DNA of 64,000 nt from a bacterium (GCA_965200245.1 CBDATS010000008.1:256001-320000), one strand, 5' to 3'; numbered from the stretch's first letter, positions 13,924 through 56,171 are shown. Translations and numbers: made by a program. The notes: generated by a model not told the origin, from the sequence alone.

Positions 13924-14481
13924 ATGGTGCCGGATCAGGCAGAACAGGAAGCCCTTTTTGCCGAGAAAATCGAAGCCCATGGCAAGTGGCTGCAAAGTTC
14001 GGGAGCGCGAGGAGAACGTGCGAACTTTGCGGGCTCGAATCTGGAAAGCATCAGTTTATTCATGGCGAACCTCTCCAAGGCAGATTTGCGCGAGGCGTGC
14101 CTGTTCCATGCCAACGCGCAATGGGCGAACTTGGATGGGGCTGATCTCACGGGTGCCAATCTCGAAGGAGCCGATCTGTTTCAGTCAAGCCTTGAGGGGG
14201 CGAATCTCAGCGGCGCGCGGATGGCCGGGGCCAACATGATGTCCGCTGCTCTCAAATTCGCTGATTTGACGGACGTAGACCTCACGGGAGCCGACCTGCG
14301 CGGGACCTCGCTCCAGCGGACAAAACTCTCAGGCGCGAATCTTCTGGATGCTCTCATCGACAATGCCGATCTGGAACTCGCCGACATCCGTGGTGTCGAC
14401 CTCTCGGGCGTGAAGGGCCTCACACCCGAGCAGGCTGAAGGCGCGCTCAAGGACGGGGAGACACTTTTTCCAGATGTGTGA
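13924..14481 (+). CDS. Pentapeptide-repeat protein
   Basis: H.KWL....G..A leader followed by many A(D/N)Lxx repeats. Start is uncertain (13783-13924). Confidence 0.9.
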   Translation: MVPDQAEQEALFAEKIEAHGKWLQSSGARGERANFAGSNLESISLFMANLSKADLREACLFHANAQWANLDGADLTGANLEGADLFQSSLEGANLSGARMAGANMMSAALKFADLTDVDLTGADLRGTSLQRTKLSGANLLDALIDNADLELADIRGVDLSGVKGLTPEQAEGALKDGETLFPDV

Positions 14482-14590
14482 GGCCTGTCTCCGGGATATT
14501 TTTTGGGTGCCTTCCCTGTGTCTTTTTCTTTGGCGGGATTCGGTTTATGATGAGTTTTTGTCGAGATTCAACGAGCAGGAGTAACGCCCC

Positions 14591-15685
14591 ATGGCACAGA
14601 CGACACGGATGTTGGACCACGAAGTCGATTTGGTGGAGTACTACTACGAACAGGGTTTCACGGACGGGCTTCCCGTCGTACCGCCCACGCCGGAGAAGAT
14701 AGATGCAACCGTCGCGGCACTGGGAGGTGATAAGGACTTCATCGAATGCCGCGTGCCCCCACGCTGGGGCAACCTCACGAGAGAGGTGCTTGCGATCAAC
14801 ATGGTGATGGCGGGCTGCAAGGTGGAATACGCGTCCATTGTTCGTGCGGCGATGCTCGCGCTTTGCGACCCGCACTTCAACCTGAACGGCGTGCAAGCCA
14901 CCACCCACATGGCATGTCCGCTCATCGTGGTGAACGGACCGATTCGAAACGAGGTCGGCATGAACGCGGGCTGCAACGTGTTCGGCTCGGGCAACCGCGC
15001 GAACGCGACGATAGGCCGCGCGGTACGGATGATTCTCCTGAACGTGGGCGGTGCGTGGCCAGGCGATCTTGACAAGAGTACGCTGGGCTGTCCCACAAAA
15101 TACACCTACTGCATCGCGGAGAACGAAGAGGCGAGCCCTTGGGCGCCCTATCACGTGGAACAAGGCTACGCGCCCGAGGATTCCACCGTCTTTGCCATCG
15201 CTGCCGAGGCACCGCACAGTGTGACGAACCACATCGCGGACGATCCCGAGGGAATCCTCGACAGTATCTGCTCGGCGATGAGCACGATTGCGCACAACAA
15301 TTCAGTGAGCAGCGGATCGTGCGCCGTCGTCATTAGCCCAGAACATGGGGCGACCATCAGTGCCAGGAACTGGACGCGAAACGACGTGAAAAGCTACCTC
15401 TGGATGCATACCAGGAACACGTTTGCCGATATCTCGTTCAACCACCGTTACGGCAAGGTTTACAACCGCAACATTCCCAAGTGGTACAGACGCGCGCCGG
15501 AGGAGAGAATTCCCATCGTGCCGAGCCCCGAGAATATCCACCTGTTCGTAGCGGGCGGGGATGCGGGTCGTTTTTCGGCCTTCATCCCCGGCTGGGGCCA
15601 CATGACAAATCCGGTGCTCCGGGCAATCGACGGCAAGGTGCTCGAAGGCGGCCCCGTCTGCGTGGACGGCACCTGTCTGCTTTAG
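14591..15685 (+). CDS. Conserved hypothetical protein associated with the UGSC gene
   Basis: 364 aa with G.TDGLPVVPPT, NMVMAGC, QATTH and NRANATIGRA motifs and a C-terminal CVDGTC. RBS AGGAG. Confidence 0.8.
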   Translation: MAQTTRMLDHEVDLVEYYYEQGFTDGLPVVPPTPEKIDATVAALGGDKDFIECRVPPRWGNLTREVLAINMVMAGCKVEYASIVRAAMLALCDPHFNLNGVQATTHMACPLIVVNGPIRNEVGMNAGCNVFGSGNRANATIGRAVRMILLNVGGAWPGDLDKSTLGCPTKYTYCIAENEEASPWAPYHVEQGYAPEDSTVFAIAAEAPHSVTNHIADDPEGILDSICSAMSTIAHNNSVSSGSCAVVISPEHGATISARNWTRNDVKSYLWMHTRNTFADISFNHRYGKVYNRNIPKWYRRAPEERIPIVPSPENIHLFVAGGDAGRFSAFIPGWGHMTNPVLRAIDGKVLEGGPVCVDGTCLL

Positions 15686-15712
15686 AATTTTGAGAAGAAC
15701 GGGAGAAAACCA

Positions 15713-16255
15713 ATGAGTGAAGTCATCACGGGTCAGATCGTCTATGACCCCCGGGGGGTGGTAGAGGCAGAAACCCAGCCCACCGCCGAGCGTGTCGGGG
15801 ACCTGAAGGGCTTGAAACTCGGCGTCCTGGATAACACGAAGTGGAACGGGCGCAAGCTGCTCGAGAAGACCACGGCGCTGATGGAGGCGGAGGGCCCCTT
15901 CGCCGAGGTGCGCTACTACAAGAAAGAGAGCTTTTCGAAGAACGCGGCACCCGATTTGATTGCGCAAATCGTGGAGGAGAACGATGTCGTCCTGACGGCG
16001 ATTGGCGACTGAGGCTCCTGCACATCGTGCTGTATGCACGATGCGGTCTCCCTGGAGGAAAAGGGTGTCCCCACCGCCGTTATAGTGACCGAGGTGTTCC
16101 TCCACGAAGCCCGCGTGCAAAGGGCGGCTCTGGGGATGAACGACCTGACCCCGGTGGTTATCCAGCACCCCCTGAGCACGCTCTCGGAAGAGGAAATCTC
16201 CGCGCGCGCGGGTGATGCGGCCCGCCAAGCGGTGAAGGTTCTGCTCAAAGGCTAG
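15713..16255 (+). CDS. UGSC-family selenoprotein (Sec100, motif AIGD-U-GSCTSCC), 180 aa
   Basis: ORFs 15713..16012 and 16034..16255 are in the same frame and separated only by TGA 16010-16012. A hairpin follows. Confidence 0.9.
16023..16043 (+). promoter_or_regulatory. Putative bacterial SECIS element
   Basis: CATCGTGC-TGTAT-GCACGATG, an 8-bp perfect stem with the loop 18 nt after the UGA and G at loop position 2. Confidence 0.7.
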
Positions 16256-16266
16256 TACATCTATTT

Positions 16267-17499
16267 ATGACAAAGCCCTTGGAAGGTATCCGCGTCCTCG
16301 ACCTGACGCAGTTTCTCTCGGGTCCGCAGGCCACACTTTTCTTGGCGGGCCTGGGAGCCGAGGTCATCCGAATCGACAATCCTGCCACTGGCGACCCGGT
16401 GGCCTATTCCCCTCCCTTCATCGGCGAGAAGGGCGTCTCTTACCATCCCCAAACGGATGAGGACATGGGGATGGCCTATTTGAAGCGTACGCGCCAGAAA
16501 AAGGCGGTCACCCTGAACATCAAGGATCCACGCGGCCTCGAGATGTTCTATGGCCTCGTCGCTCGATCCGACATCTTGGTGGAGAACTTCTCCGTCGGCG
16601 TCACGAAAAGGCTCAAAATCGACTACGAGACGCTTCACGCCCGAAAACCCTCCTTGGTGTATTGTTCCATCACGGGTTATGGACAGACGGGACCTGACTC
16701 CGGCCTGAAGGGTTACGACGCTGTCTCCCAGGCCGCTTCGGGCCTGATGAACCTCACGGGCTTTCCCGACGGTCCGCCCACCAAGGCGGGTTCGGCCCTT
16801 GGCGACAGTATGGGAGGCACGTTCGCCTTCGGCGCCATCATGACTGCGCTCTTTCACCGTGAGCGCACAGGCAAAGGTCAGCATATTGACATTTCGATGA
16901 TCGACTGCATCTTCTCGCTCATCTTCGATGAGCCGATGGATTGTTACGAACGGCTGGGCCTCCCGCCGCGTATCGGCAACCGCATCATGCGGCTCGCGCC
17001 GTTCAATGCCTACGAGACGAAAGACGGCTGGGTAATCGTCGCTTCGGGCACCAACGCGCATTGGCACAACATACTGCACGGCATCGAACGCACCGACCTG
17101 ATAGGCGATGAACGATACGAGGACATGAGCCGGCGCGTGAGCAAGGTAGAGGAAGTCGACGCAATCATCAACGAATGGACTAGGCGGCGCGAGACGAAAG
17201 AGGCAGTCTCCTCACTGCGTGCGCACGACGTTATCTGCGGGCCGGTGAACAACATCGACGACATCCTCGCATGGCCCCATATGCAAGAGCGCGAGATGAT
17301 TGTCGATCTCGAACACCCCACCCTGGGGACGCTCGCCGGTGCGAAAGCCCCCGGTTTTCCCTTCAAATTCAGCGAAATCAAGGGTAGCTACGAGGCCTCC
17401 GCCCCGCTCGTGGGGCAGCACAACGCGGAAATCCTGGGCGGATTGCTCGGCGTGTCCGACGCAGAATTGAAGGGACTGGAAGACGCAGGTGTAATCTAG
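16267..17499 (+). CDS. CaiB/BaiF (family III) CoA-transferase
   Basis: Motifs PLEGIRVLDLT, LGAEVI, ENFS, SITGYGQTGP, GYD and G.GQHIDISM. Confidence 0.93.
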   Translation: MTKPLEGIRVLDLTQFLSGPQATLFLAGLGAEVIRIDNPATGDPVAYSPPFIGEKGVSYHPQTDEDMGMAYLKRTRQKKAVTLNIKDPRGLEMFYGLVARSDILVENFSVGVTKRLKIDYETLHARKPSLVYCSITGYGQTGPDSGLKGYDAVSQAASGLMNLTGFPDGPPTKAGSALGDSMGGTFAFGAIMTALFHRERTGKGQHIDISMIDCIFSLIFDEPMDCYERLGLPPRIGNRIMRLAPFNAYETKDGWVIVASGTNAHWHNILHGIERTDLIGDERYEDMSRRVSKVEEVDAIINEWTRRRETKEAVSSLRAHDVICGPVNNIDDILAWPHMQEREMIVDLEHPTLGTLAGAKAPGFPFKFSEIKGSYEASAPLVGQHNAEILGGLLGVSDAELKGLEDAGVI

Positions 17500-17534: not shown

Positions 17535-18368
17535 ATGAGACGCGGTATCTTCATGCTGATGATGGTTTGTTTCCTCCTTTTGGGGTGCGCCGGAGAAGTC
17601 AACCTCTCGGGAGGGATCAATCCCAAAACGCTCGATCTGGCCGAAGAGGCGCGACGCACGTTCGATGCCGCCTACGTCATGCTCGAGATAAATGGCGAGT
17701 TCATCGGTGGCAGGATGGATGAGAGGTTCGTCCAGGTAAAACTCGCGGGATTAAAGAAAAAACGCCGCACCGTGATTTTCATTCACGGCTGCTCGGGACT
17801 AGGACGCGGGAACTTGCACTATATGCGGATTCTCGCACGGGCGGGCTACGCTGTCATTGCGCCAGACAGCTTCGCACGCCGCTACCGGCCTGAGACGTGC
17901 GATCCTGCGCGACATCGAGGCATAGAAGGTGCGCCGCACAGGCGCGTGGGGCGGATGCGCCAGAAGGAGATTCATCACGCGGCGTACCGGGTTCGGCATA
18001 TCCGATGGGTGGACAGGCAAAACCTCTTTCTGATGGGGCACAGCCAGGGAGGAACCGCAGCCGCTTCCTATGGGGGAGATGAGTTCGGTGCTCACGTCAT
18101 CTCGGGTTCCACTTGCGGGCGCGGCGTTCGAGTGCCTAAAGCGATTCCTGTTCTTGTGCTGTACTCGAAAGGGGATCCCTGGCGGCGTGGGAGGCCCGCC
18201 GATAGATGCCTGCGCAAGGCGAAAGAACGTGGTGTGAACATGGAGTTTCATCTCTTCGAGGGTCGCGCGCACAACTTCTCACGCAACAGGCGAGCCCGTC
18301 GGCTGATTCTCGATTTTTTGAAGCGATACCGCAGAGCGGAAACGATAATGATACAGAGCGCGCTCTAG
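17535..18368 (+). CDS. Dienelactone hydrolase-family lipoprotein
   Basis: Lipobox LLGC, HGCSG, GHSQGG elbow and HNF. Confidence 0.8.
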   Translation: MRRGIFMLMMVCFLLLGCAGEVNLSGGINPKTLDLAEEARRTFDAAYVMLEINGEFIGGRMDERFVQVKLAGLKKKRRTVIFIHGCSGLGRGNLHYMRILARAGYAVIAPDSFARRYRPETCDPARHRGIEGAPHRRVGRMRQKEIHHAAYRVRHIRWVDRQNLFLMGHSQGGTAAASYGGDEFGAHVISGSTCGRGVRVPKAIPVLVLYSKGDPWRRGRPADRCLRKAKERGVNMEFHLFEGRAHNFSRNRRARRLILDFLKRYRRAETIMIQSAL

Positions 18369-18461: not shown

Positions 18462-19448
18462 ATGCGAATCTGTACGATCAGTCTGGGAGGTGAGGCGCGC
18501 ATCGGCGTCTTGTTCGGGGAGAAAATCGCCGATCTCAAGCTGGCCTATGCCTTGTCGCTGGATGAGGTATCCGCTGCCGAGGCTATTGACCGCGTCGAGG
18601 CCGAGGTTCCCGATGATTGTGAGGAGTTTATCGAGGACCTCGAGTTGAATCGCCCCTTGGCGGAGGAAGCTCTTCAAGTGCTCGAAAATCATGGAAACAA
18701 GCAAGAACCGGTTCGCTTCGACGGGATGCAGGTGGTTTATGAACCCGGTGAAGTCGAAATCCTTCCTCCGGTCGTCCCGGGCACGCTGTTCTGCATGGCG
18801 AGGAACTACGTGGCGCATGCCGCCGAGATGGCGCGCACTCAGGTGGACGACTTTAAGGAAGAACTTCCGCTCTATTGTTTCCTGAAACCTGCGACGTGCG
18901 TGAGTGGCCCCTATGACGATGTGCCTGTCTATCCCTCGATGGAAAAACTCGACTATGAACTCGAACTCGGCGTGCTCATCGGGCAGGGTGGCAAGAACAT
19001 TCCCGTGGAGCGCGCCATGGACCATGTGGGCGGCTACACCTTGTTCAACGACATGAGCGATCGTACGACGCTCAATATGGGCAAGTTCATCGACTGGTAT
19101 GCCATGAAGGCTCCCGACGGTTTCGGCCCCATCGGCCCCTATATCCTCTTGCCCGAAGAAGGGCTCGACCCCCACGATTTACGGCTCAAGCTCTGGGTGA
19201 ACGGCGAACTTAGGCAAGACGCGACCACGGGTGATATGGTCTGGCGCATCGTCGAGCAGGTGTCCTATCTATCGAGTATCACAACACTGCGAACGGGCGA
19301 CATCATCGGCACCGGATCGCCTGCAGGCAATGCCGCTTCTTGGGGAGAATATCTCCAGCCAGGGGATCTGATAGAGGGTGAAATCGAAAGCATCGGACGC
19401 CAAGCTTTCCGCATCAGGATCGAGAACCCCGAGTATGTCCCGGGCTAG
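18462..19448 (+). CDS. Fumarylacetoacetate hydrolase-family protein
   Basis: Motifs RNY..H..E, FLKP, DYELEL, NDMSDR, K..DGF.PIGP and GDIIGTGSP. Confidence 0.92.
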   Translation: MRICTISLGGEARIGVLFGEKIADLKLAYALSLDEVSAAEAIDRVEAEVPDDCEEFIEDLELNRPLAEEALQVLENHGNKQEPVRFDGMQVVYEPGEVEILPPVVPGTLFCMARNYVAHAAEMARTQVDDFKEELPLYCFLKPATCVSGPYDDVPVYPSMEKLDYELELGVLIGQGGKNIPVERAMDHVGGYTLFNDMSDRTTLNMGKFIDWYAMKAPDGFGPIGPYILLPEEGLDPHDLRLKLWVNGELRQDATTGDMVWRIVEQVSYLSSITTLRTGDIIGTGSPAGNAASWGEYLQPGDLIEGEIESIGRQAFRIRIENPEYVPG

Positions 19449-19542
19449 ATTTTCCGGTGGTTGATCCCTGACAGTCCGGGGATTAAGATTTTCTCGGTGC
19501 ACGAGGTGCTCCCGAGCCGCTGAAAACCGAAAGGGGAAACCC

Positions 19543-20910
19543 ATGAACTCACCAATGGCCGAAGCCGAATCACTCCGTATGATGGACAAGGAGCACGTCT
19601 GGCATCCGCTCTTGAACCATTTCGGAATGGAGGAGAATCCCCTCGATGTCGTGGTCAAGGCCGAAGGATCAACCATCCAGGACGCTTCCGGCAGGGAATA
19701 CATTGACGCCATGGCCGGGCTTTGGTGCGTGAACATCGGTTACGGGCGCGACGAGGTGGCCCGTGCGGCCTACGAGCAGATGCTCGAGTTGTCCTACTAT
19801 CCGCTCACGCAGGTAAACCCGCCGGCTGCCAGACTCGCCGAGCGTCTTGCCTCCTTGCTGCCCAAGGGAGTCGAGCGTGTCTGGTTCGTTAACTCGGGTT
19901 CCGAGGCGGTGGATACCGCTATCAAGATAGCCCGTGCCTATGGACGTCTGAACGGCGGGAAGCGGTACAAGATCATCGCCCGCCACCAGGGATATCATGG
20001 AGCGACAATTGGCGGGGCGAGCCTCACCGGACAGACGCTCAGGCGCGCGATGTTCGAACCGCTCCTGCCGGGCGTGATTCACGTAAGTGCACCCTATTTC
20101 TACCGCAGCAACGCAGATACTGAAGAAGAACTCGCCTCCCGCTGCGCGGACGAGCTGGATGAGGTCATCCGCTATGAGGATCCCGGGACTGTGGCGGCGT
20201 TCATCGCGGAGCCTGTCATCGGTGGCGGCGGGGTGATTCCGCCTCCCGCGGATTACCTGAAACGCATGCGTGAGGTATGCAGAAACCACGGCGTGTTGTT
20301 CATCGCCGATGAGGTTATCACCGGCTTCGGGCGCACGGGAGTGCTGTTCGCTTCCGACTTGTATGAGATCGAACCGGATATCATGACGATGGCCAAGGGG
20401 CTGAGCAGCGCCTATCTGCCTATCGGGGCGACGGCGACCACGAGCGAAATTTTCGAGGCCCTGAACGCCGAGGGCGATTCAGGCTTCCTGCAAATCAACA
20501 CTTACGGAGGACACCCCGCGGCCTGTGCAGCGTCGCTCAAGAATCTGGAAATCATGATGGATGAGGAGTTGCCCGCGCGAGGTGCCAAGGTGGGCACTTA
20601 TCTCGGCGGGCTATTGAAGAAACTTTCCGACATTCCACTGGTGGGCGACGTGCGGGGGGTGGGCCTCATCTGGGGCGTCGAGTTGGTAGAAGAGAGTGGT
20701 GCGCCGCTTCCCACGGCGGCCACGGCGAAGGTGCTGGCCTACGCGAAAGAAGCGGGTGTCATTTTCGGCAAGAACGCAGGTATCGCAGCGGGCCCCTCGA
20801 ACACCGTAACCATCAGCCCGCCGCTGGTCTTTACAGAAGAAGAAGCCGAGCGCGCTGCCTCCGCTCTCGACGGTGCCCTGCGCCGCGTCCAGGCGGAGAG
20901 TGGCGTGTGA
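19543..20910 (+). CDS. Class-III PLP aminotransferase (omega-amine/taurine:pyruvate type)
   Basis: Motifs D..HVWH, GLWCVNIGYG, SGSEA, YHG, DEVITGFGRTG and MAKGLSS. Confidence 0.9.
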   Translation: MNSPMAEAESLRMMDKEHVWHPLLNHFGMEENPLDVVVKAEGSTIQDASGREYIDAMAGLWCVNIGYGRDEVARAAYEQMLELSYYPLTQVNPPAARLAERLASLLPKGVERVWFVNSGSEAVDTAIKIARAYGRLNGGKRYKIIARHQGYHGATIGGASLTGQTLRRAMFEPLLPGVIHVSAPYFYRSNADTEEELASRCADELDEVIRYEDPGTVAAFIAEPVIGGGGVIPPPADYLKRMREVCRNHGVLFIADEVITGFGRTGVLFASDLYEIEPDIMTMAKGLSSAYLPIGATATTSEIFEALNAEGDSGFLQINTYGGHPAACAASLKNLEIMMDEELPARGAKVGTYLGGLLKKLSDIPLVGDVRGVGLIWGVELVEESGAPLPTAATAKVLAYAKEAGVIFGKNAGIAAGPSNTVTISPPLVFTEEEAERAASALDGALRRVQAESGV

Positions 20911-24440: not shown

Positions 24441-25193
24441 TCACGCCGGCCCGAAATACGCCTTGATGCGTCTGGCCGCCTCCTTAGAGACGCCGCTCAT
24501 CACCTCTGTCACGCGTTTGGGTGAGGTGTCCTCAATTACGCCGTACCATCCCGATTCATACATCTCTCGCACATCTTTCGGGATGTAGTAGACTGCCGGG
24601 TCGCGCCGGGCGGCGTCGCTCTTCGCTCCGTGATCCATGGGGGATGCGTCCGTGGCGAGTTCGAGGTGAGCGAGTTCGGGCCTGTCGGCGAGGACAGGCA
24701 GGACCTCGAGTTCTCCACCGTGGGTGAGGCCCACCTTCTGGCCGTAGAGGTTCTTGGCAATGAAGTGCGCGTGCACGATGAGGATTCGCAAACCCTCGTG
24801 TGCGTTCTGGGCGTCTTCGGCGGCGATCTCCATCGCCGGCAGGTTGCGCTCGTGCCAGTTCAGGAACACGATTTTTCTCGCACCGTGCTGATGGAGGCTG
24901 CCGACGACATCGCGCATCAGGCGGGTCATAGTCTCAGAGCGCAGTGACACCGTTCCACCGAAGCCCATGTGCAGGGGCGTAACACCGAAGGGGCAGAAGT
25001 CCACGAGCAACCCGCCGGTGATAGCCACGACCCGCCTCGCGAACGATTCAGCCGCGTAGTAGTCTGTACCCATCGGCAGGTGGGAGCCGTGTTGCTCCAC
25101 ACTGCCGATGGGAATGATGGCTAGGGCAGTTTCCTCCAATATCTTTTCGGCTTCGGGGTTCGTCATTTCCATCAGTGTGCGCGCTTTTCCCAT
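24441..25193 (-). CDS. Creatininase/creatinine amidohydrolase-family protein
   Basis: GSVEQHGSHLPMGTD, NWHERN (variant of NGHGGN) and HGGELE. Confidence 0.85.
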   Translation of the reverse strand: MGKARTLMEMTNPEAEKILEETALAIIPIGSVEQHGSHLPMGTDYYAAESFARRVVAITGGLLVDFCPFGVTPLHMGFGGTVSLRSETMTRLMRDVVGSLHQHGARKIVFLNWHERNLPAMEIAAEDAQNAHEGLRILIVHAHFIAKNLYGQKVGLTHGGELEVLPVLADRPELAHLELATDASPMDHGAKSDAARRDPAVYYIPKDVREMYESGWYGVIEDTSPKRVTEVMSGVSKEAARRIKAYFGPA

Positions 25194-29023: not shown

Positions 29024-30584
<1,561 letters not shown>

Positions 30585-30898
30585 TGCTGAATGATTCGTT
30601 TTCAGAAAGCACGGGAGGGGGGGAGGGCGTTTTCGCTGTCCGGTGGAAACGAATCGCTTTCCTGCCTGAAGATCGTGCGACGCCGCCTTGCACCTATGGG
30701 GCATGGCAGGATGATTGCAAAACGAATCGGCGCTTCAAGGTCGACTGCCCGTCTCGGGCCGTCCATATCCTGTTCTTGAAAATTACGCCACAGCGGGTAT
30801 GCGGATTGTTCCGAATTCGGTCAGTTATGAATTTGGGCTGAATGTCTGGGTGAATCCCGACGCGGAAGCTTGGTTTGAAGTCGCGCGGGCGAGGTCGC

Positions 30899-30975
30899 GG
30901 GCCTATAGCTCAGTTGGTCAGAGCGCGCGCCTGATAAGCGCGAGGTCCCTGGTTCAAATCCAGGTAGGCCCACCA
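30899..30975 (+). tRNA. tRNA-Ile (GAT)
   Basis: GGGCCTATAGCTCAG...CTGATAA...GGTTCAAATCC...CACCA in the ITS. Confidence 0.97.
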
Positions 30976-31113
30976 TACCGGAATTCCGGAATTGACAGAA
31001 ACGAAACGCATGGCATGAAACGCCTGGAAGTGATGGCGTGGATGGACCGTTGAGCGGAGCCGTGCAGGCTCATCGTCGTCGCGGGTCGTTCCCTGAAGCG
31101 AAATCTGAGATAT

Positions 31114-31189
31114 GGGGATGTAGCTCAGTCGGGAGAGCGCCTGGTTTGCAACCAGGAGGTCGGCGGTTCGAGCCCGCTCATCTCCACCA
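31114..31189 (+). tRNA. tRNA-Ala (TGC)
   Basis: GGGGATGTAGCTCAG...TTTGCAA...GGTTCGAGCCC...TCCACCA. Confidence 0.97.
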
Positions 31190-31344
31190 TTTGCATTGGC
31201 GGCTGTGGGTGATGAATTTGAATTCTCTGGCAGTTTCGGGCGGGAGTTTCTTCCGTCTTTTGATCTTTGACAATCGAATCGCATGAATTGGCATGTTCAT
31301 TGAAGGCTCTCAGTAATGGCTGGGAATCTGAAATCTCAAGATTC

Positions 31345-34334
<2,990 letters not shown>

Positions 34335-34416
34335 GATTTGAGATATCACTCATCGGTTCTCGGCCGGAGCCTCATGATGCCAATCGTGTGATTTGATTGT
34401 CAGGAATTTCAAAAAT

Positions 34417-34532
34417 TTCCGGTGGCTATAGCGGCGGGGCCACACCCGTTCCCATCCCGAACACGGCAGTTAAGCCCGCCAGCGCCTATGGTACTGCGGT
34501 CCTTTCCGTGGGAGAGTGGGTCGTCGCCGGAA
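34417..34532 (+). rRNA. rrf: 5S rRNA
   Basis: CCGGTGGCTATAGCG...CCCGTTCCCATCCCGAACACGG...GGGAGAGT...CGCCGGA. Confidence 0.97.
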
Positions 34533-34542
34533 TATGAATCGG

Positions 34543-34578
34543 AAACCCCGCTGGTCATTACAGCCAGCGGGGTTTTTG
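34543..34578 (+). terminator. Rho-independent terminator of the rrn operon
   Basis: AAACCCCGCTGG...CCAGCGGGGTTTTT. Confidence 0.85.
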
Positions 34579-35451
34579 TGTCTGTACAGGGAATGGCGAG
34601 CTTCGGGTATCCCCGAACGCTCGGGTACATATCGGGAATCTGTTTCGGATTTCCTGTCATGACGGGTGCCATGGAACTCGGCCTCGGTGGATTGTTCTAT
34701 GCTTTGCCCGATGTCCATGTCATCCCCTGGTATCTCGGTTACGTCTGTATCCCCTGAATGGCGCGGAAGATCGCTGTCGCCGACGGAATGGACGCAACAG
34801 GCGAAAACCGGGCAAGCCGTTTACCTTCCTTCTCGTGGTGTCATTCATCCTGGTTTTTCTCGGCCGGGACACCTTGAGCGGGTTGTCCTGGAAAGGAGTA
34901 ACGCGAAAGAGCAATCCTTACAACATCCAACTCTCCGGTAAGGGGATTCTCATCTTGCGCCCCGTTGGTGTCCGTTTTTCCGACTACAATCAGTGGCAAG
35001 TCGAAGCCGCCGGACAGCGTCGGAAGAAACGGGGAAAGGCAGTGTCGGCATATGGGTTTCTAGGCCTTATTGCCGCCTACGTTGGCCTGGGACTCATCTG
35101 TTACGGTATCTGCGTCACGGCGAAGGGTGCAGAAATACGCCTCGGTGGACTCAGAGCGCAAACACGCCGGGACGATGACCGAACCAGATTACAGGCACAA
35201 TGAGTTAATGGTCGAATCCGATTGCAAGCACACCGGATCGGTAGCAGCCCTGCGTGAAATCATCAAGCGCACCAAATCGCCGCGATTAGCCGGCCCGGTT
35301 TTCGTCCCTGAAAGACATTCACTCTCTCAATTGAAATCGGGACCAGTTTTCTGCAGCGTCCGCTGCATTTTTCATCGCTTTGTTGTATACTATTACACTT
35401 ACTCATTGAACATGCGCTGGCCACAATCTCGCCAACCGATGGAAGACAGCC

Positions 35452-41878: not shown

Positions 41879-43540
41879 CTACATGTCGACGACGGTGAAA
41901 TCGCCGTCATAATTGTATTTGGCTCTTGCTTTTTGAATGGAAAGCAAACCTTCCTGTAAATCGCGCTCAATGGCGTAAAAGGAACGATCCTTCGGGTCGC
42001 CGTAGCCTCCTCCACTCGGTACTTCCAGAACGAGTCTGTCGCTTTGATTCATTACCCATTGGCGCTTGGGATTTATGGGACGACCGTTCAGGGTCACCTT
42101 TCCAACACGTCCGTTGTTCCCGCCGAACAACCCGTAGGCGGGGTGCCGTGTACGCTCGCTCATGAACGTAAGGAGGATCGGCCCGTCGGAGAGCGATTTC
42201 ACGATTACCTGCTGGCCGTTGCCGCCGGCGTATTTGCCTGCGCCGCCACTGTCTCTGATAGATGCTTTCCGCTCTACCAGCAACGGCACGAGGTGCTCCA
42301 GGATTTCAATGGGCGTGTTCGACGTGTTCGAGGGGAAATCAAGGCATACGCGCCCATCGTGCCTGTCCGTCGCGCCCTGCCCTCCATGCAGGAAGAAATT
42401 GCCCGCAAAGTGCCGGTTCTCTTTCGTGATGCCCGCCGCATTGATAGCCCACGTGGGGCTCCCGCTGGCAGCTTGCACGAGATTGGGAACCGCCTTGCAC
42501 AGGGCGCCAAAAATGGCCGAGGGGATGAAGTGTCCCACCATGGAGCGACCGTTCACCGGGGCCGGATAGCGCGCATTGAGTATGCTTCCTTCAGGAGCAG
42601 ATACCGTCACGGGCCGGAAGTTTCCCTCGTTGTTGGGAATTTGTGGGCAGAACAGGCACTTGAGCGAATAGGCGGAGTAAGAATAGACGTAACTCAGCAC
42701 GGCGTTTAGGCCCCGGTCAACCTGTGGGGAAGAACCTGTATAGTCCACCAGGATGCTGCTGCCGCGAACCTTCACCTCCACGCGGATAACGAGCGGCTCG
42801 TCGTACCCATCTGTGGAAACCTGGAAACGGTATTCTCCGTCTTCGACTTTCTTGATGGCTTCGCGCATGGCGTTTTCGGAACGCTGGAAGATAGTGGTGG
42901 CGGATGCCTCAAGGTCGGCGAGTTTGTATTCTTCCAGAATCTCGCCGATGCGTTGGGCGGCGAGCCTGCTGGCGGACATGTGGGAGATCAGGTCTCCTTC
43001 CACCTGATTCGGAACGCGCACGTTTTTTCTGATAATTCGCAGAATGTCTGCGTTGATCTGGCCACCAGACATGTATTTGCAGGGCGGGAGCTGGAGTCCT
43101 TCTTCGTATATCTCGCGTACCTCGGGCGACCTCAGTTTCCCTCCCATGTCCGTCACCTGGGTGGTGATTCCGATGAGGGCGACAAGCTTCGATTTGTAGA
43201 AAACCGGTGTGAGGGAAGTGAGATCCTGAAGATGGCCAGTTCCCATCCAGGGGTCGTTTGTAAGGATGAGGTCATCTTGCTTGAGGGTTTCCTGCGGGAA
43301 AATCTGCAGGAGTTTCTTGGCCGTGATTGGTAATGCGCCGACGAAGCTAGGCATGGTGGACCTGGCTTGAGCGATGGACTGTCCACCAGGGTTCAAAATG
43401 ACAACAGCGAAATTCCTCGATTCACGTATCGTGGTGGAAAATGCGGTGCGCACGATCTCAGTAGCCGCTTCCTCGGCGATGGCGACGAAGCGGTTCCAGA
43501 GGACTTCCAAAGTAATCGAATCGATACCCTTGCGGGCCAT
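41879..43540 (-). CDS. Hydantoinase B/oxoprolinase family subunit
   Basis: Motifs RTAFS..IRE, NDPW..GH..D, EEGL, NEG and GGGYGDP. RBS AGGAG precedes ATG 43540. Confidence 0.92.
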   Translation of the reverse strand: MARKGIDSITLEVLWNRFVAIAEEAATEIVRTAFSTTIRESRNFAVVILNPGGQSIAQARSTMPSFVGALPITAKKLLQIFPQETLKQDDLILTNDPWMGTGHLQDLTSLTPVFYKSKLVALIGITTQVTDMGGKLRSPEVREIYEEGLQLPPCKYMSGGQINADILRIIRKNVRVPNQVEGDLISHMSASRLAAQRIGEILEEYKLADLEASATTIFQRSENAMREAIKKVEDGEYRFQVSTDGYDEPLVIRVEVKVRGSSILVDYTGSSPQVDRGLNAVLSYVYSYSAYSLKCLFCPQIPNNEGNFRPVTVSAPEGSILNARYPAPVNGRSMVGHFIPSAIFGALCKAVPNLVQAASGSPTWAINAAGITKENRHFAGNFFLHGGQGATDRHDGRVCLDFPSNTSNTPIEILEHLVPLLVERKASIRDSGGAGKYAGGNGQQVIVKSLSDGPILLTFMSERTRHPAYGLFGGNNGRVGKVTLNGRPINPKRQWVMNQSDRLVLEVPSGGGYGDPKDRSFYAIERDLQEGLLSIQKARAKYNYDGDFTVVDM

Positions 43541-43553
43541 ATCGGAAATTCTC

Positions 43554-45653
43554 CTAGAGTTCGATGATAAGATTCTGGAATTTGTCGACCTGGAAGTTCG
43601 AGCGCGGGCCAATGACAGTCGTTGTCATTTTTTCCTCTACCAGCGCGGGTCCCTTGAGCTTCTGGCCGGGTTTCAGCAGATAGCGATCGAAGATATTCAC
43701 CTTTCGGAAGCCCTTATTCTCCGGCATATAGATACGTCGGTTACCTTTCAAGGCGTTTTTGCCGCCATTTTCAGATAAATTCGAGAAATCGAAATTCACG
43801 TTGGGTTCCGGTCCCATACCGAAAATTCTCCAACCAAACACCTGGAGCGGCACTTCGTCGATGGCACGCCCATGGGCTGAGGCGTAGTGTTCGCGGTAGG
43901 TTTCGATGATTTCCCCGAAATGGCTTCGTGTCAGTTTTCCGCTCGGGATTGGAATGGTGAGCGGGAAGCCTTGGCCCTCGAAACTGATGTCTGCCATACG
44001 CTGGATACGGATTTGGCGTTCTTTCACGCCCGCGGTGGTGAGTACTTGACGAAGCCGCTTTTCCCGCCGGGTAAGTGTTTCGTTAAGTTTGGCGAGGTTC
44101 ACGTCTTCGAGAGCTATTACATGGCTGTCCACGGTGTCGACCTTGAAGGGGACGGTATGGAGTCCCAAGCTGGAAGCCAAGCCTGCGCCCGGCGGGCAGA
44201 CAATGCGCTTGAGCCCCACCTTGCGCGCGAGCCTGAAGGCATGGACCGGACCCGCGCCGCCGGTAGCCAAAAGTGTGAAGTGGCGCGGGTCCTTACCGCG
44301 TTCGGATAGCTTGATGCGCGCGGCGGCGGCCATGGTTTCATTCACCAGTTCATGAATACCCCAAGCCGCCTGGATTTCTTCGATTTTCATCGGGTCAGCG
44401 ATTTTGGTGCGGATGGCTTCGGATGCTGCTTCGGGGAAGACGGGCATTTCCCCGCCCAGGAAATAATCGGGATTGATGTAGCCAAGCAATAGATTCGCGT
44501 CTGTCACCGTAGGTTTTTCTCCGCCCAGTCCATAGCATGCGGGACCTGGAGAGGCTCCCTGGCTCTCGGGACCGACCTTGAGTAGTCCCAAGTCGTCGAT
44601 TCGCGCGATGCTTCCTCCGCCGGCGCCGACCTCGATGAGATCGATGCACGGCACCTGGATGGGCATGCCGCTGCCTTTCGTGAAGCGTTTCACGCGTGCA
44701 ATCTCGAATTGCACGGAGAGGTGGGGTTCCCCATTTTCGATGATGCAGGATTTGGCGGTGGTTCCGCCCATGTCGAAGGCGAGAAGATTCTCGAATCCGC
44801 CGAGTTTCCCGAAATAGGCTGAGGAGAGTGCTCCCGCCGCTGGCCCCGACTCGAACATGCGTATAGGGCTGCGCCCGGCGGATTGCGCTGTGGTGATTCC
44901 ACCGTTCGATAGCATGATGTAGAGCGAGACGTTCTCAAGGTTGACCTCGAGGTCTTCGAGATACTTCGACACAATTGGCTGAATGTAAGCGTTTGCCACC
45001 GTGGTGGAGGTTCTCTCGTACTCCCTGATCTCGGGACAAACCTGCGAGGAGAGGCTGAAGCTAACTTCCGGGAACGATTGCGCTATGGCTTCTCCGACTT
45101 CGGTCTCATGGGCCGGATTAGCGTAGGAGTGCAAGAGGCAAACCGCAATAGATTCCGCCCCTTTTTCGACGAGTTCCTGAATTGTAACCCGGACCTCCTG
45201 GGTGCTCAAAGGCTGGAGAATCTCCCCATTCGCGGAAATCCGTTCTGTTAATTCGCGGCGAAAGGGTCCAGAAACGAGAGGTTCCGGAAATTCAGGCACG
45301 ATGTCGTAGATATCGTACCTTGACTCACGACCTATCAACAGGATATCGGCGAACCCTTTTGTAGAGAGAAGGCCTGTGAAGGCTCCTTTTTTCTCGATGA
45401 TGGCATTAGTAGCGAGGGTGGTTGCGTGAATCGCCTGCCCAAGATCGCGGAACTTGAGATTTTCCTCGTCGAGCAGCGTGCGCAGGCCGGCAAGTGCACC
45501 GATGGATGGGTCGTTCGGTGTCGTGAGATACTTGCCCACCGAGGTCTTTCCGTTTGAAGGATTGTAGACCGCGATGTCGGTGAACGTACCCCCGATATCG
45601 ATAGCGGCAACAATTCTTCTTCTGGCTGTAGGGGATGATGCGGATTTGGCCAT
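43554..45653 (-). CDS. Hydantoinase A/oxoprolinase family subunit
   Basis: Motifs DIGGTFTD, ESGPAAG, DMGGTT, GAGGGS and GGAGP.HA. Confidence 0.93.
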   Translation of the reverse strand: MAKSASSPTARRRIVAAIDIGGTFTDIAVYNPSNGKTSVGKYLTTPNDPSIGALAGLRTLLDEENLKFRDLGQAIHATTLATNAIIEKKGAFTGLLSTKGFADILLIGRESRYDIYDIVPEFPEPLVSGPFRRELTERISANGEILQPLSTQEVRVTIQELVEKGAESIAVCLLHSYANPAHETEVGEAIAQSFPEVSFSLSSQVCPEIREYERTSTTVANAYIQPIVSKYLEDLEVNLENVSLYIMLSNGGITTAQSAGRSPIRMFESGPAAGALSSAYFGKLGGFENLLAFDMGGTTAKSCIIENGEPHLSVQFEIARVKRFTKGSGMPIQVPCIDLIEVGAGGGSIARIDDLGLLKVGPESQGASPGPACYGLGGEKPTVTDANLLLGYINPDYFLGGEMPVFPEAASEAIRTKIADPMKIEEIQAAWGIHELVNETMAAAARIKLSERGKDPRHFTLLATGGAGPVHAFRLARKVGLKRIVCPPGAGLASSLGLHTVPFKVDTVDSHVIALEDVNLAKLNETLTRREKRLRQVLTTAGVKERQIRIQRMADISFEGQGFPLTIPIPSGKLTRSHFGEIIETYREHYASAHGRAIDEVPLQVFGWRIFGMGPEPNVNFDFSNLSENGGKNALKGNRRIYMPENKGFRKVNIFDRYLLKPGQKLKGPALVEEKMTTTVIGPRSNFQVDKFQNLIIEL

Positions 45654-55272: not shown

Positions 55273-56028
55273 CTAGAGTGAAGCCAGGTCTTCGATCAGC
55301 CCGCGCAGACGCGCGGATACGGCTTCGAAATACTGTGCCCCGGTTTCCGCCGTCGCGGCACTCGGAGTACCCGATACGCCCGATGGTGCGCGGTGCCTGT
55401 TGAAATCCACCGGGCGGAAAAGCATGCCACGGTGGTGCATATCCTTTGTTGCCAAAGGATGCGTGTTCGTGTTGGGTTGATCGACTACCTCTTCCATGTT
55501 CACCAGATCGGGGCGAAGGTGGAGCATCATTGCGGTTTCGAACTCACCGCTGTGGGCCATACCTCCTACGGGCGTTTTTCTGATCTCCGCAGAGATTTCG
55601 TTGCCAAGATGGAAGTAGGTGATCATCCAGATGGTGAGCTCCAGTTCGTAGCCGATGTCGTTCAGCGTGGCTTGTAACGGCTGTACGTTTCCGCCATGGC
55701 CGTTCACGACGAATATTTTCTTGTATCCGTGATGGGCCACGGAGCGGATGATGTCCTTGATGAGGGCGACATAGGTCTCAAGTCTCAAGGAGATGGTTCC
55801 CGGATACTCGAAGTGATGGTGCGACGTACCCGTCCACATCGTAGGTGTCAGGAGTACGTTATCGAGGCCCTCCAAGGCCTTTCGGCAAACACTGGTACAC
55901 AGAAGCGTATCCACCACGACGGGGTTGTGTGGCCCATGCTGTTCCATCGAGGCGAAGGGAATAACGACCACGGCTCCGTTTTGGACCATTTCCTTGTGTT
56001 GCGGCCAACTGAGTTCTTCCCAAAGCAT
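55273..56028 (-). CDS. Creatininase-family protein
   Basis: Motifs SMEQHGPH.P..VD, S.HH..YPGT, NGHGGN and HSGEFET. Confidence 0.92.
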   Translation of the reverse strand: MLWEELSWPQHKEMVQNGAVVVIPFASMEQHGPHNPVVVDTLLCTSVCRKALEGLDNVLLTPTMWTGTSHHHFEYPGTISLRLETYVALIKDIIRSVAHHGYKKIFVVNGHGGNVQPLQATLNDIGYELELTIWMITYFHLGNEISAEIRKTPVGGMAHSGEFETAMMLHLRPDLVNMEEVVDQPNTNTHPLATKDMHHRGMLFRPVDFNRHRAPSGVSGTPSAATAETGAQYFEAVSARLRGLIEDLASL

Positions 56029-56171
56029 AGGGGCATCCTTCAATTTAGTGTGAGTAAGACCTCAAGGTTCTCAGGTTTTTTCATATCCGGCAAGAGCCGC
56101 GCCTCTCCGTGGCATACCTGGGGCGAGTTTCCCGATTGACAACTCCAGGCGCTGCCGCCATGCTCCCCTGT

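Follow-up and report, generated by a model that had tools for sequence, protein, structure and literature searches.

What does a selenoprotein of the UGSC family do, and what does it work with? The question is raised by a locus in a 64,000-nucleotide (nt) stretch of bacterial DNA (GCA_965200245.1, CBDATS010000008.1:256001-320000), called the window below, in whose numbering the coordinates are given. Three codirectional genes, spaced 27 nt (15686-15712) and then 11 nt (16256-16266) apart, encode in turn a cysteine-rich protein of 364 residues, here named A364, a UGSC-family selenoprotein, and a family-III coenzyme A (CoA) transferase. The open reading frames (ORFs) and the sequence bear out this layout as it was described in a first-pass annotation of the same DNA, which also proposed that the first two proteins form an undescribed selenocysteine (Sec)-containing enzyme, related to the glycine reductase selenoprotein GrdB, for a substrate handled by the third. 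The analysis shows that A364 and UGSC are near-obligate partners, encoded next to each other or fused in one chain. On balance, we lean towards reading them as a split, two-component, Sec-dependent reductase that is recycled by thiols and serves organic-acid or acyl-CoA catabolism, by a mechanism that we infer throughout.

The selenoprotein gene has to be established first. Under translation table 11 its reading frame covers 15713-16012 (99 residues) and stops at a TGA. With this TGA translated as Sec (U), the product grows to 180 residues and carries DVVLTAIGD-U-GSCTSCCMHDAVSLEEKGVPTAVI, exactly as in the first-pass annotation. The readthrough product matches the Pfam family UGSC (PF24696) over residues 10-178, with 199.6 bits against a cut-off of 25, and the NCBIfam model NF041046 'UGSC family (seleno)protein' with 157 bits against a cut-off of 125, both matches spanning the TGA. 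The motif around the codon is D99-U100-G-S-C103-T-S-C106, and its U/C-G-S-C core is invariant in 35 aligned UGSC members. To place the locus among its relatives we used a genome scan with one genome per species, in which 514 stretches encode A364 relatives; the best 80 loci were taken, their genes being called by a crude ORF heuristic, and many of them come from closely related genomes, so that the counts below overstate independence. TGA occupies the same D-U-GSCTSC codon in 76 of 76 orthologous UGSC genes that adjoin A364 relatives in these loci, across many phyla, and the protein sequence is conserved on both sides of it. Six more distant paralogous copies of UGSC in the loci have the TGA too. 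The UGA is decoded as Sec, probably with the help of a hairpin downstream, and the gene belongs to the UGSC selenoproteins, as had been claimed.

bSECISearch recognises bacterial Sec insertion sequence (SECIS) elements by a hairpin that lies shortly after the UGA and has a G in its apical loop. The 8-bp stem that had been reported after the Sec codon is present, with CAUCGUGC pairing with GCACGAUG around the loop UGUAU; it begins 11 nt past the UGA, and both this distance and the G in the loop are of the bSECISearch type. A 61-nt segment containing the hairpin folds with -23.5 kcal/mol (z = -2.1), and 8 of 200 shuffled sequences were as stable. Over 65 distinct sequences 93.5% of the cells are paired, and the core consists of 6 invariant base pairs. 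Two pairs change on both sides, a covariation score that 497 of 500 shuffles also reach; it does not rise above the shuffles because the hairpin stretch overlaps invariant codons and hence also encodes invariant residues. The conserved hairpin supports a SECIS element, short of proof.

The UGSC gene lies directly downstream of the A364 gene, on the same strand, in 76 of the 80 loci. One of the four exceptions (L021) ends inside A364, and the other three (L019, L067 and L080) show no UGSC within the stretches covered, giving only chance-level matches of at most 27 bits. The same holds on plasmids, where each of the 17 records with a UGSC match has an A364 match within a few hundred bases. Fusions point the same way. 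Among the 150 best A364 representatives there are 67 chains of at least 400 residues, and when these were scanned with Pfam, 41 proved to carry a UGSC domain in the same chain. A complete UGSC stands at the N-terminus in 15 of these, which are Cys forms, because their ORFs are unbroken; in 22 the UGSC domain begins just past the Sec position; and in the remaining 4 A364 comes first and the C-terminal UGSC stops at the Sec position. No extra Pfam domain was found in 19 of the 67 chains, including forms of about 710 residues with two copies of A364. Pairs of the Cys type are known from haloarchaea, Arthrobacter, Variovorax and Roseovarius. The earlier suggestion that A364 and UGSC form a functional unit is thus upheld by adjacency in genomes and on plasmids and by fusion.

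Several observations on the architecture of these proteins can be added. Six chains of about 710-740 residues (P0132, P0139, P0143, P0178, P0195 and P0220) contain two or three A364 stretches and no other Pfam domain, and look like tandem duplications of the domain. P0123 (450 residues) was rejected as a natural fusion and not counted, its junction reading like the frameshifted end of an A364. The Cys-type UGSC on a plasmid of Arthrobacter sp. ERGS1:01 (L087, 8000-8815) has a C-terminal extension with a borderline NifU-like match of 27.2 bits (cut-off 27), and genes of the phosphosulfolactate synthase family lie near the pair in this strain and in Natrinema zhouii. In loci from Acidobacteriota, a second, distant UGSC paralogue is encoded a few kb 5' of the main pair; it has 31-37% identity and again a TGA (L062, 28-1943; L050, 1467-2003; L052, 1286-1819; L076, 581-1114; L077, 1412-1945; L069, 31-321). 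In L062 this paralogue is preceded by an A364 paralogue (39% identity), and genes for an SSF symporter and a FadB-like protein lie between the two pairs.

How much of this was known already? The first-pass annotation called the system undescribed, which does not stand, given that both the family and its fusion to another domain were reported in 2007-2008 (PMC1976440, PMC2398784, in their passages on UGSC). UGSC is called 'a selenoprotein of unknown function' in a passage of the 2007 paper (PMC1976440), and it still appears among the uncharacterised selenoprotein families in the part of a 2026 review that treats them (PMC13188914). The annotation was right that the family has no assigned function, as far as the passages on UGSC in these papers go; a functional assignment was not found in the passages on UGSC selenoproteins in the literature consulted. 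Zhang & Gladyshev (2008; PMC2398784), in the sections that concern UGSC, describe a fusion of UGSC to a domain named 'Unknown_1', and rank UGSC as one of the commonest selenoprotein families of prokaryotes in ocean surveys, with 255 Sec sequences in 37 Global Ocean Sampling (GOS) samples. The window gene passes both curated family cut-offs and has the same D-U-G-S-C as the GOS reads listed as '#UGSC-containing' in Dataset S1 of that paper. It adds one more sequence to a selenoprotein family that is known but functionally uncharacterised. One of the GOS reads extends past the domain, and the extension loosely recalls the start of A364. A364, the fusion partner in 41 of the 67 long chains of our own set, is very probably Unknown_1; here, unlike in the published fusion, the two are encoded separately, with A364 ahead of UGSC.

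A364 has no Pfam or NCBIfam family match, and when 64 diverse relatives were searched singly against both collections at E values up to 1, no family was matched by more than one of them. The family is large: at least 7675 clusters at 90% identity were matched among 8000 candidates scored, and there are 4852 clusters at 50% identity with E <= 0.001. The subfamily to which the window protein belongs spans about 72-94% identity over records from Nitrospinota, Acidobacteriota, Alpha- and Betaproteobacteria, SAR324 and Chloroflexota. Over 150 representative clusters, six residues are near-universal, namely D25 (139/140), C76 (138/143), R143 (148/148), C174 (131/148), E177 (147/148) and H252 (124/142); the window subfamily also has an invariant C244 and several His. 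An AlphaFold2 model made from 64 sequences has a mean predicted local distance difference test score (pLDDT) of 91.8 and a predicted template modelling score (pTM) of 0.91. Its weak regions are residues 281-300 and the last 20 or so, the tail (356-364) falling below a pLDDT of 50. As first annotated, the protein is Cys-rich, with 11 Cys, and its C-terminus contains CVDGTC, the last residues being CVDGTCLL. The CxxxxC of this tail is found in 116 of 119 close relatives and in 4 of the 150 representatives, and its low pLDDT suggests that it is flexible or disordered.

A Foldseek search of the PDB with the A364 model found no convincing fold match, the best template modelling (TM) score being at most 0.25. 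The top rows were class-I fumarate hydratases and cyanuric acid hydrolases, with E >= 1e-3 and a root-mean-square deviation of about 19 Å. Kinship with the class-I (Fe-S) fumarate hydratases was rejected on these TM scores and on an hhalign comparison with E. coli FumA, which gave a probability of 0.14%. Stray matches of UGSC to FumA models were discarded likewise, the UGSC profile reaching a probability of 1.9% when compared with that protein in the same way.

The model of UGSC (pLDDT 89.3) is a five-strand alternating β/α domain, in which strand 3 and helix 3 flank Sec100. It matches flavodoxin-like proteins of the PDB (azoreductases, WrbA-type proteins, flavodoxin and TIR domains) with TM scores of 0.40-0.50, and the fold is therefore predicted to be flavodoxin-like. 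None of the approximately 40 PDB matches listed is named as a thioredoxin or peroxiredoxin, and no GrdB or PrdB chain is among them. This differs from the thioredoxin-like fold that PMC2398784 suggests where it discusses UGSC; with the five-strand alternating β/α model and the flavodoxin-like matches, we ruled out a thioredoxin fold. Sequence searches of the PDB, using single proteins and the UGSC profile, returned chance-level rows only. In the ESM Atlas one cluster had UGSC on 16% of its members, and the matches were otherwise to unnamed look-alikes; a search for named entries gave no match.

The redox role proposed at the outset fits the thiol-redox modules that are fused to A364 relatives or encoded beside the pair. 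Among the 67 long chains, five have an AhpC/Redoxin domain with CxxC, two have the catalytic chain of ferredoxin-thioredoxin reductase (FTR), in one case together with UGSC, and one has a Pyr_redox_2 flavoprotein domain that resembles thioredoxin reductase (TrxR) and contains a CAVC motif. In three of the nine annotated plasmid regions viewed, trxB is near the pair: UGSC is followed by trxB in Roseovarius sp. THAF8, the order is trxB-trxA-A364-UGSC in Arthrobacter sp. ERGS1:01, and the cluster of Variovorax sp. SRS16 contains trxB. Familiar reductases that depend on thioredoxin (Trx) include the Msr-Trx fusions, AhpF/AhpC and class Ia ribonucleotide reductase with its C-terminal CxxxxC shuttle. 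The A364-UGSC pair resembles these in its logic, with a presumed catalytic domain that has conserved Cys, interchangeable CxxC or UxxC donors, a TrxR-like input and a flexible dicysteine tail; it differs in having no sequence or fold relation to them, and in its donor, a Sec protein for which a flavodoxin-like fold is predicted.

The third gene gives a hint of the metabolic setting. The CoA-transferase matches PF02515, the profile of the family-III enzymes (CaiB/BaiF; formyl-CoA, succinate--glutarate and mesaconate CoA-transferases), over its whole length and above the cut-off, with 379.2 bits from residue 5 to 386 and over profile positions 1-366 of 366. None of the NCBIfam equivalog cut-offs is reached, the best being succinate--glutarate CoA-transferase at 283 against 750, and its substrate is consequently not assignable. 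A homologue is present in 23 of the 80 loci. It follows UGSC directly in 19 of the 76 UGSC-bearing loci (L001-L014, L018, L020, L024, L045 and L060); 17 of these are relatives whose A364 is at least 79% identical to that of the window, and the two exceptions are L045 (Rhodospirillaceae) and L060 (Burkholderiales). In L022 and L025 the homologue lies 1.9 kb further downstream, and in L044 and L049 it is 3.5 kb away, with 29-30% identity. Non-orthologous family-III CoA-transferases are found near the pair in three of the nine annotated plasmid loci. The proposed CoA-transferase link is thus supported only in part: the direct linkage recurs, but mostly in one clade. The CoA-transferase is linked to the pair in some lineages only, and in the present one it is probably on the same transcript.

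Other neighbours recur over the 80 loci, in particular LarA-like proteins (26), pyrroloquinoline quinone dehydrogenases (21), FadB-like proteins (12), SSF symporters (10), acyl-CoA dehydrogenases (4) and amidases (3). Transporters near the pairs are of the branched-chain-type ABC, TRAP, TTT, MFS and BCCT kinds, and LysR regulators recur. Aconitase X adjoins the fused forms in Vibrio europaeus and Sporomusa termitida. The common theme points to the catabolism of small carboxylic acids or CoA esters.

Taken together, these features can be accommodated in a working model, which we consider somewhat better than an even proposition. The A364 and UGSC genes would be the two halves of a widespread two-domain enzyme that is split here. 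A364 would bind the substrate at a site made up of D25, C76, R143, C174, E177 and H252, and Sec100-x-x-Cys103 of UGSC, at the start of a helix in the flavodoxin-like domain, would provide two electrons. Sec100 could itself attack the substrate, the route proposed for GrdB and PrdB, or it could resolve an oxidised Cys of A364; both routes would end with Sec100 and Cys103 joined in an Se-S bond. This bond would be re-reduced by thiol systems, in the present subfamily perhaps by way of the CxxxxC tail of A364, and in other lineages by a dedicated TrxB/TrxA or by the fused Redoxin, FTR-like or TrxR-like modules. From the neighbourhoods, the substrate may be a small carboxylic acid or a CoA thioester, and the CoA-transferase 11 nt downstream would make or consume the thioester.

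A number of points weigh against such a reductase. The PDB search brought up no relative from whose fold the chemistry of A364 could be read (the best TM score, as noted, is at most 0.25). Neither C76 nor C174 is fully invariant: Gly replaces Cys76 in one close relative, and 11 of 120 have no Cys174. In the fused form of Sporomusa termitida the UGSC-like domain no longer contains the Cys/Sec motif, which implies a non-redox, structural role for that domain in some paralogues. The window and the 80 genome loci encode neither TrxB nor TrxA. The window UGSC scores only 15.6, 14.9 and 15.8 bits with selenoprotein-B models whose cut-offs are 602.2, 800 and 300. Roseovarius, Natrinema zhouii and Variovorax have non-orthologous CoA-transferases near the pair, only about 35% identical to that of the window; and the neighbourhoods themselves vary, in a set where related genomes inflate the counts and the ORF calls are crude.

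Could the pair instead be a strict reductase of the GrdB/PrdB type, as the first-pass annotation had it? In that version Sec100 would attack a substrate carbon and cleave the bond of a carbon to N or another heteroatom by way of a selenoether, with the substrate held on A364, Cys103 resolving to Se-S, and the product or its CoA ester passing to the CoA-transferase. GrdB, GrdF and GrdH carry a UxxCxxC motif (Wagner et al., 1999, as cited in PMC6778437; also PMC13188914, in the portions of both that deal with these proteins), and U100-G-S-C103-T-S-C106 of UGSC has the identical layout. When the 35 UGSC proteins were scanned singly against 18,950 NCBIfam models, the matches outside their own family were mainly to selenoprotein-B models, which were the only other families to recur: GrdB (TIGR01917) with 20 of the 35, GrdF (NF040794) with 15, PrdB (TIGR04483) with 9, GrdH with 3 and TIGR01918 with 2. 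The window protein aligns by residues 73-156 to positions 323-397 of the 431 in the GrdB model, across the Sec. UGSC is also of about the size of PrdB, and both have a larger, unrelated partner; the known systems likewise combine a Sec subunit with a larger partner and draw their electrons ultimately from thiol systems (PMC13188914, in its account of them). Transporters of the amino-acid or osmolyte type (SSF, BCCT and branched-chain ABC), an amidase and a class-III aminotransferase in some neighbourhoods also speak for it. Every one of these model matches is sub-threshold, however, the best E being 9.6e-5, so that the likeness to GrdB survives as a weak one, confined to the motif and to recurrent matches around the Sec, at scores far below the family cut-offs.

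The remainder of the comparison is less favourable to the GrdB type. A364 matches no pyruvoyl proprotein of the GrdE/PrdA type and no other family, and genes for GrdE/PrdA, GrdA, GrdC, GrdD and PrdC-like proteins were absent from the window ORFs scanned. The hosts of UGSC are mostly aerobic, marine or soil lineages and not Stickland fermenters, and the UGSC domain has 180 residues and is free-standing or fused to A364. Moreover, the five fused relatives in which UGSC is swapped for a CxxC Redoxin suggest that UGSC is an electron donor rather than the group that attacks the substrate. We therefore regard the strict GrdB version as doubtful. A bolder formulation is that A364 and UGSC constitute a third class of Sec-dependent substrate reductase beside the glycine-type and proline reductases, in which a distant offshoot of the GrdB/PrdB Sec loop is joined to a substrate-binding subunit with a fold unseen in the PDB. 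Such an enzyme would be spread through aerobic bacteria of sea and soil and, in Cys form, through haloarchaea, and would reductively cleave a C-heteroatom bond in a small organic acid, an osmolyte or a CoA ester. This is a tentative idea, and we consider it improbable.

A second alternative dispenses with the catabolic tie and makes the pair a general thiol-redox or antioxidant system, a peroxidase-like or repair reductase for oxidised proteins or small oxidants, in which UGSC is a substitute for thioredoxin. The relatives fused to AhpC/TSA-Redoxin or TrxR-like domains would fit, as would the grouping of UGSC with Trx-like redox selenoproteins in the relevant passages of PMC2398784 and PMC13188914, and the abundance of the family in oxic ocean samples that the former describes in its survey results. 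The predicted flavodoxin-like fold and the lack of any named thioredoxin or peroxiredoxin among the PDB matches listed argue against it. So does the genomic setting, in which the pair recurs in LysR-regulated clusters with transporters, CoA-transferases, acyl-CoA enzymes, LarA-like proteins and aconitase X, and not with stress genes; and paralogous pairs within one cluster, in L062 and others, suggest diversification of substrates. We think this explanation unlikely.

Thirdly, the pair might belong to selenium metabolism, reducing or carrying selenium compounds, for instance to feed SelD. Five of the 80 loci (L041, L045, L068, L070 and L074) have a tRNA-Sec gene immediately 5' of the pair, the sole other tRNA gene in all 80 being one tRNA-Gly. 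In three of the five (L068, L070 and L074) the order is selA, selB, tRNA-Sec, A364, UGSC and a gene for a Pyr_redox_2-SelD fusion, selA not being in the L074 stretch, and selB is near the pair in Paracoccus ferrooxidans. Genes of the Sec machinery commonly adjoin the main selenoprotein gene of a genome, so that linkage to sel genes is expected for any dominant selenoprotein. The remaining 75 of the 80 loci have no such link, and the Cys-type pairs of haloarchaea, Arthrobacter, Variovorax and Roseovarius have no sel genes in the stretches viewed. On this evidence a role in selenium metabolism is very improbable. As an observation in its own right, the three loci with a Sec toolkit around the pair (38-7382 in L068) are from alphaproteobacterial metagenome-assembled genomes, and the arrangement suggests that the pair is the main user of Sec in them.

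Equally hard to credit is a system without net redox chemistry, that is, a thiol/selenol isomerase or lyase for an unsaturated acid or CoA ester, which would use Michael addition followed by elimination, with thiol systems serving only to keep it reduced. With its conserved Cys, Asp, Arg and Glu, A364 would be equipped for acid-base chemistry on a carboxylate, and the neighbours include a gene of the fumarylacetoacetate hydrolase (FAH) family, enoyl-CoA hydratases, LarA-like racemases and aconitase X; the fusions to TrxR- and FTR-like domains and the dedicated trxB/trxA operons exceed what maintenance would need. Finally, that the TGA is a true stop or a sequencing error, with no selenoprotein at all, is already contradicted and can be discounted: a table-11 ORF does end at 16012, a 73-residue ORF does start at 16034, and none of selA, selB, selD and tRNA-Sec was found in the 64-kb window, but the TGA and the coding sequence across it are conserved in all 76 orthologues, the curated selenoprotein cut-off is exceeded across the codon, and the hairpin downstream is conserved as well.

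Against this background, what is new here is the near-obligate pairing of UGSC with one family that lacks a curated model, a predicted flavodoxin-like fold of UGSC in place of the assumed Trx-like one, a weak link of the Sec loop to GrdB and PrdB, and named modules for electron input (TrxB/TrxA, Redoxin and FTR-like). There are also cultured, plasmid-borne examples: Roseovarius sp. THAF8 (plasmid pTHAF8_b), Arthrobacter sp. ERGS1:01 and, with pairs of the Sec type, Paracoccus ferrooxidans and P. versutus. The pairing, the fold, the GrdB/PrdB link, the input modules and the cultured carriers together make the question of what UGSC does a testable one. The A364 family, with its thousands of clusters and, in the window subfamily, about 75% identity from phylum to phylum, is in addition a large gap in protein annotation.

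Table 1. Features of the locus and its downstream context, in window coordinates.
Feature	Position	Strand	Description and basis
A364 gene	14591-15685	+	364 aa; presumed substrate-binding or catalytic subunit; ORF call and translation
UGSC-family selenoprotein gene	15713-16255	+	180 aa, Sec100 in D-U-G-S-C-T-S-C
UGA codon read as Sec	16010-16012	+	translation and TGA conservation in orthologues
SECIS-like hairpin	16023-16043	+	8-bp stem, 5-nt loop UGUAU
Family-III (CaiB/BaiF-type) CoA-transferase gene	16267-17499	+	410 aa; PF02515
Dienelactone-hydrolase-like protein gene	17535-18368	+	Pfam; context gene
FAH-family protein gene	18462-19448	+	Pfam; context gene
Class-III aminotransferase gene	19543-20910	+	Pfam; context gene

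The three context genes downstream of the CoA-transferase (Table 1) are syntenic in close relatives (L001-L014, L018, L020 and L024), and whether they belong to the same pathway as the UGSC pair is uncertain. The dienelactone-hydrolase-like protein has an N-terminus, MRRGIFMLMMVCFLLLGCAGE, that resembles a lipoprotein signal with a lipobox, and it may be exported, unlike its operon neighbours. A scan of the window for promoters and terminators gave counts no higher than the shuffle level, and its single usable result is a terminator-like site at 19461-19486, 3' of the FAH gene. By eye, an inverted repeat on which the scan was silent, GGAGACA...TGTCTCC with a 22-nt loop, can be seen at 14457-14503, across the stop codon of the upstream pentapeptide-repeat gene and followed by a T-run; it may be a terminator, which would make A364 the first gene of its transcript.

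Further away, the window holds a full rRNA operon at 29024-34532 (16S, 29024-30576; 23S, 31345-34336; 5S, 34418-34532), with genes for tRNA-Ile and tRNA-Ala in its spacer, so the ORF calls at 30157-34757 are spurious. There are also two genes of the creatinine amidohydrolase family, both on the minus strand (24441-25193 and 55273-56043), as well as hydantoinase A/B genes (41879-45653) and a gene for a putative cyclase, which together suggest a heavy investment in the catabolism of cyclic amides or nitrogen compounds.

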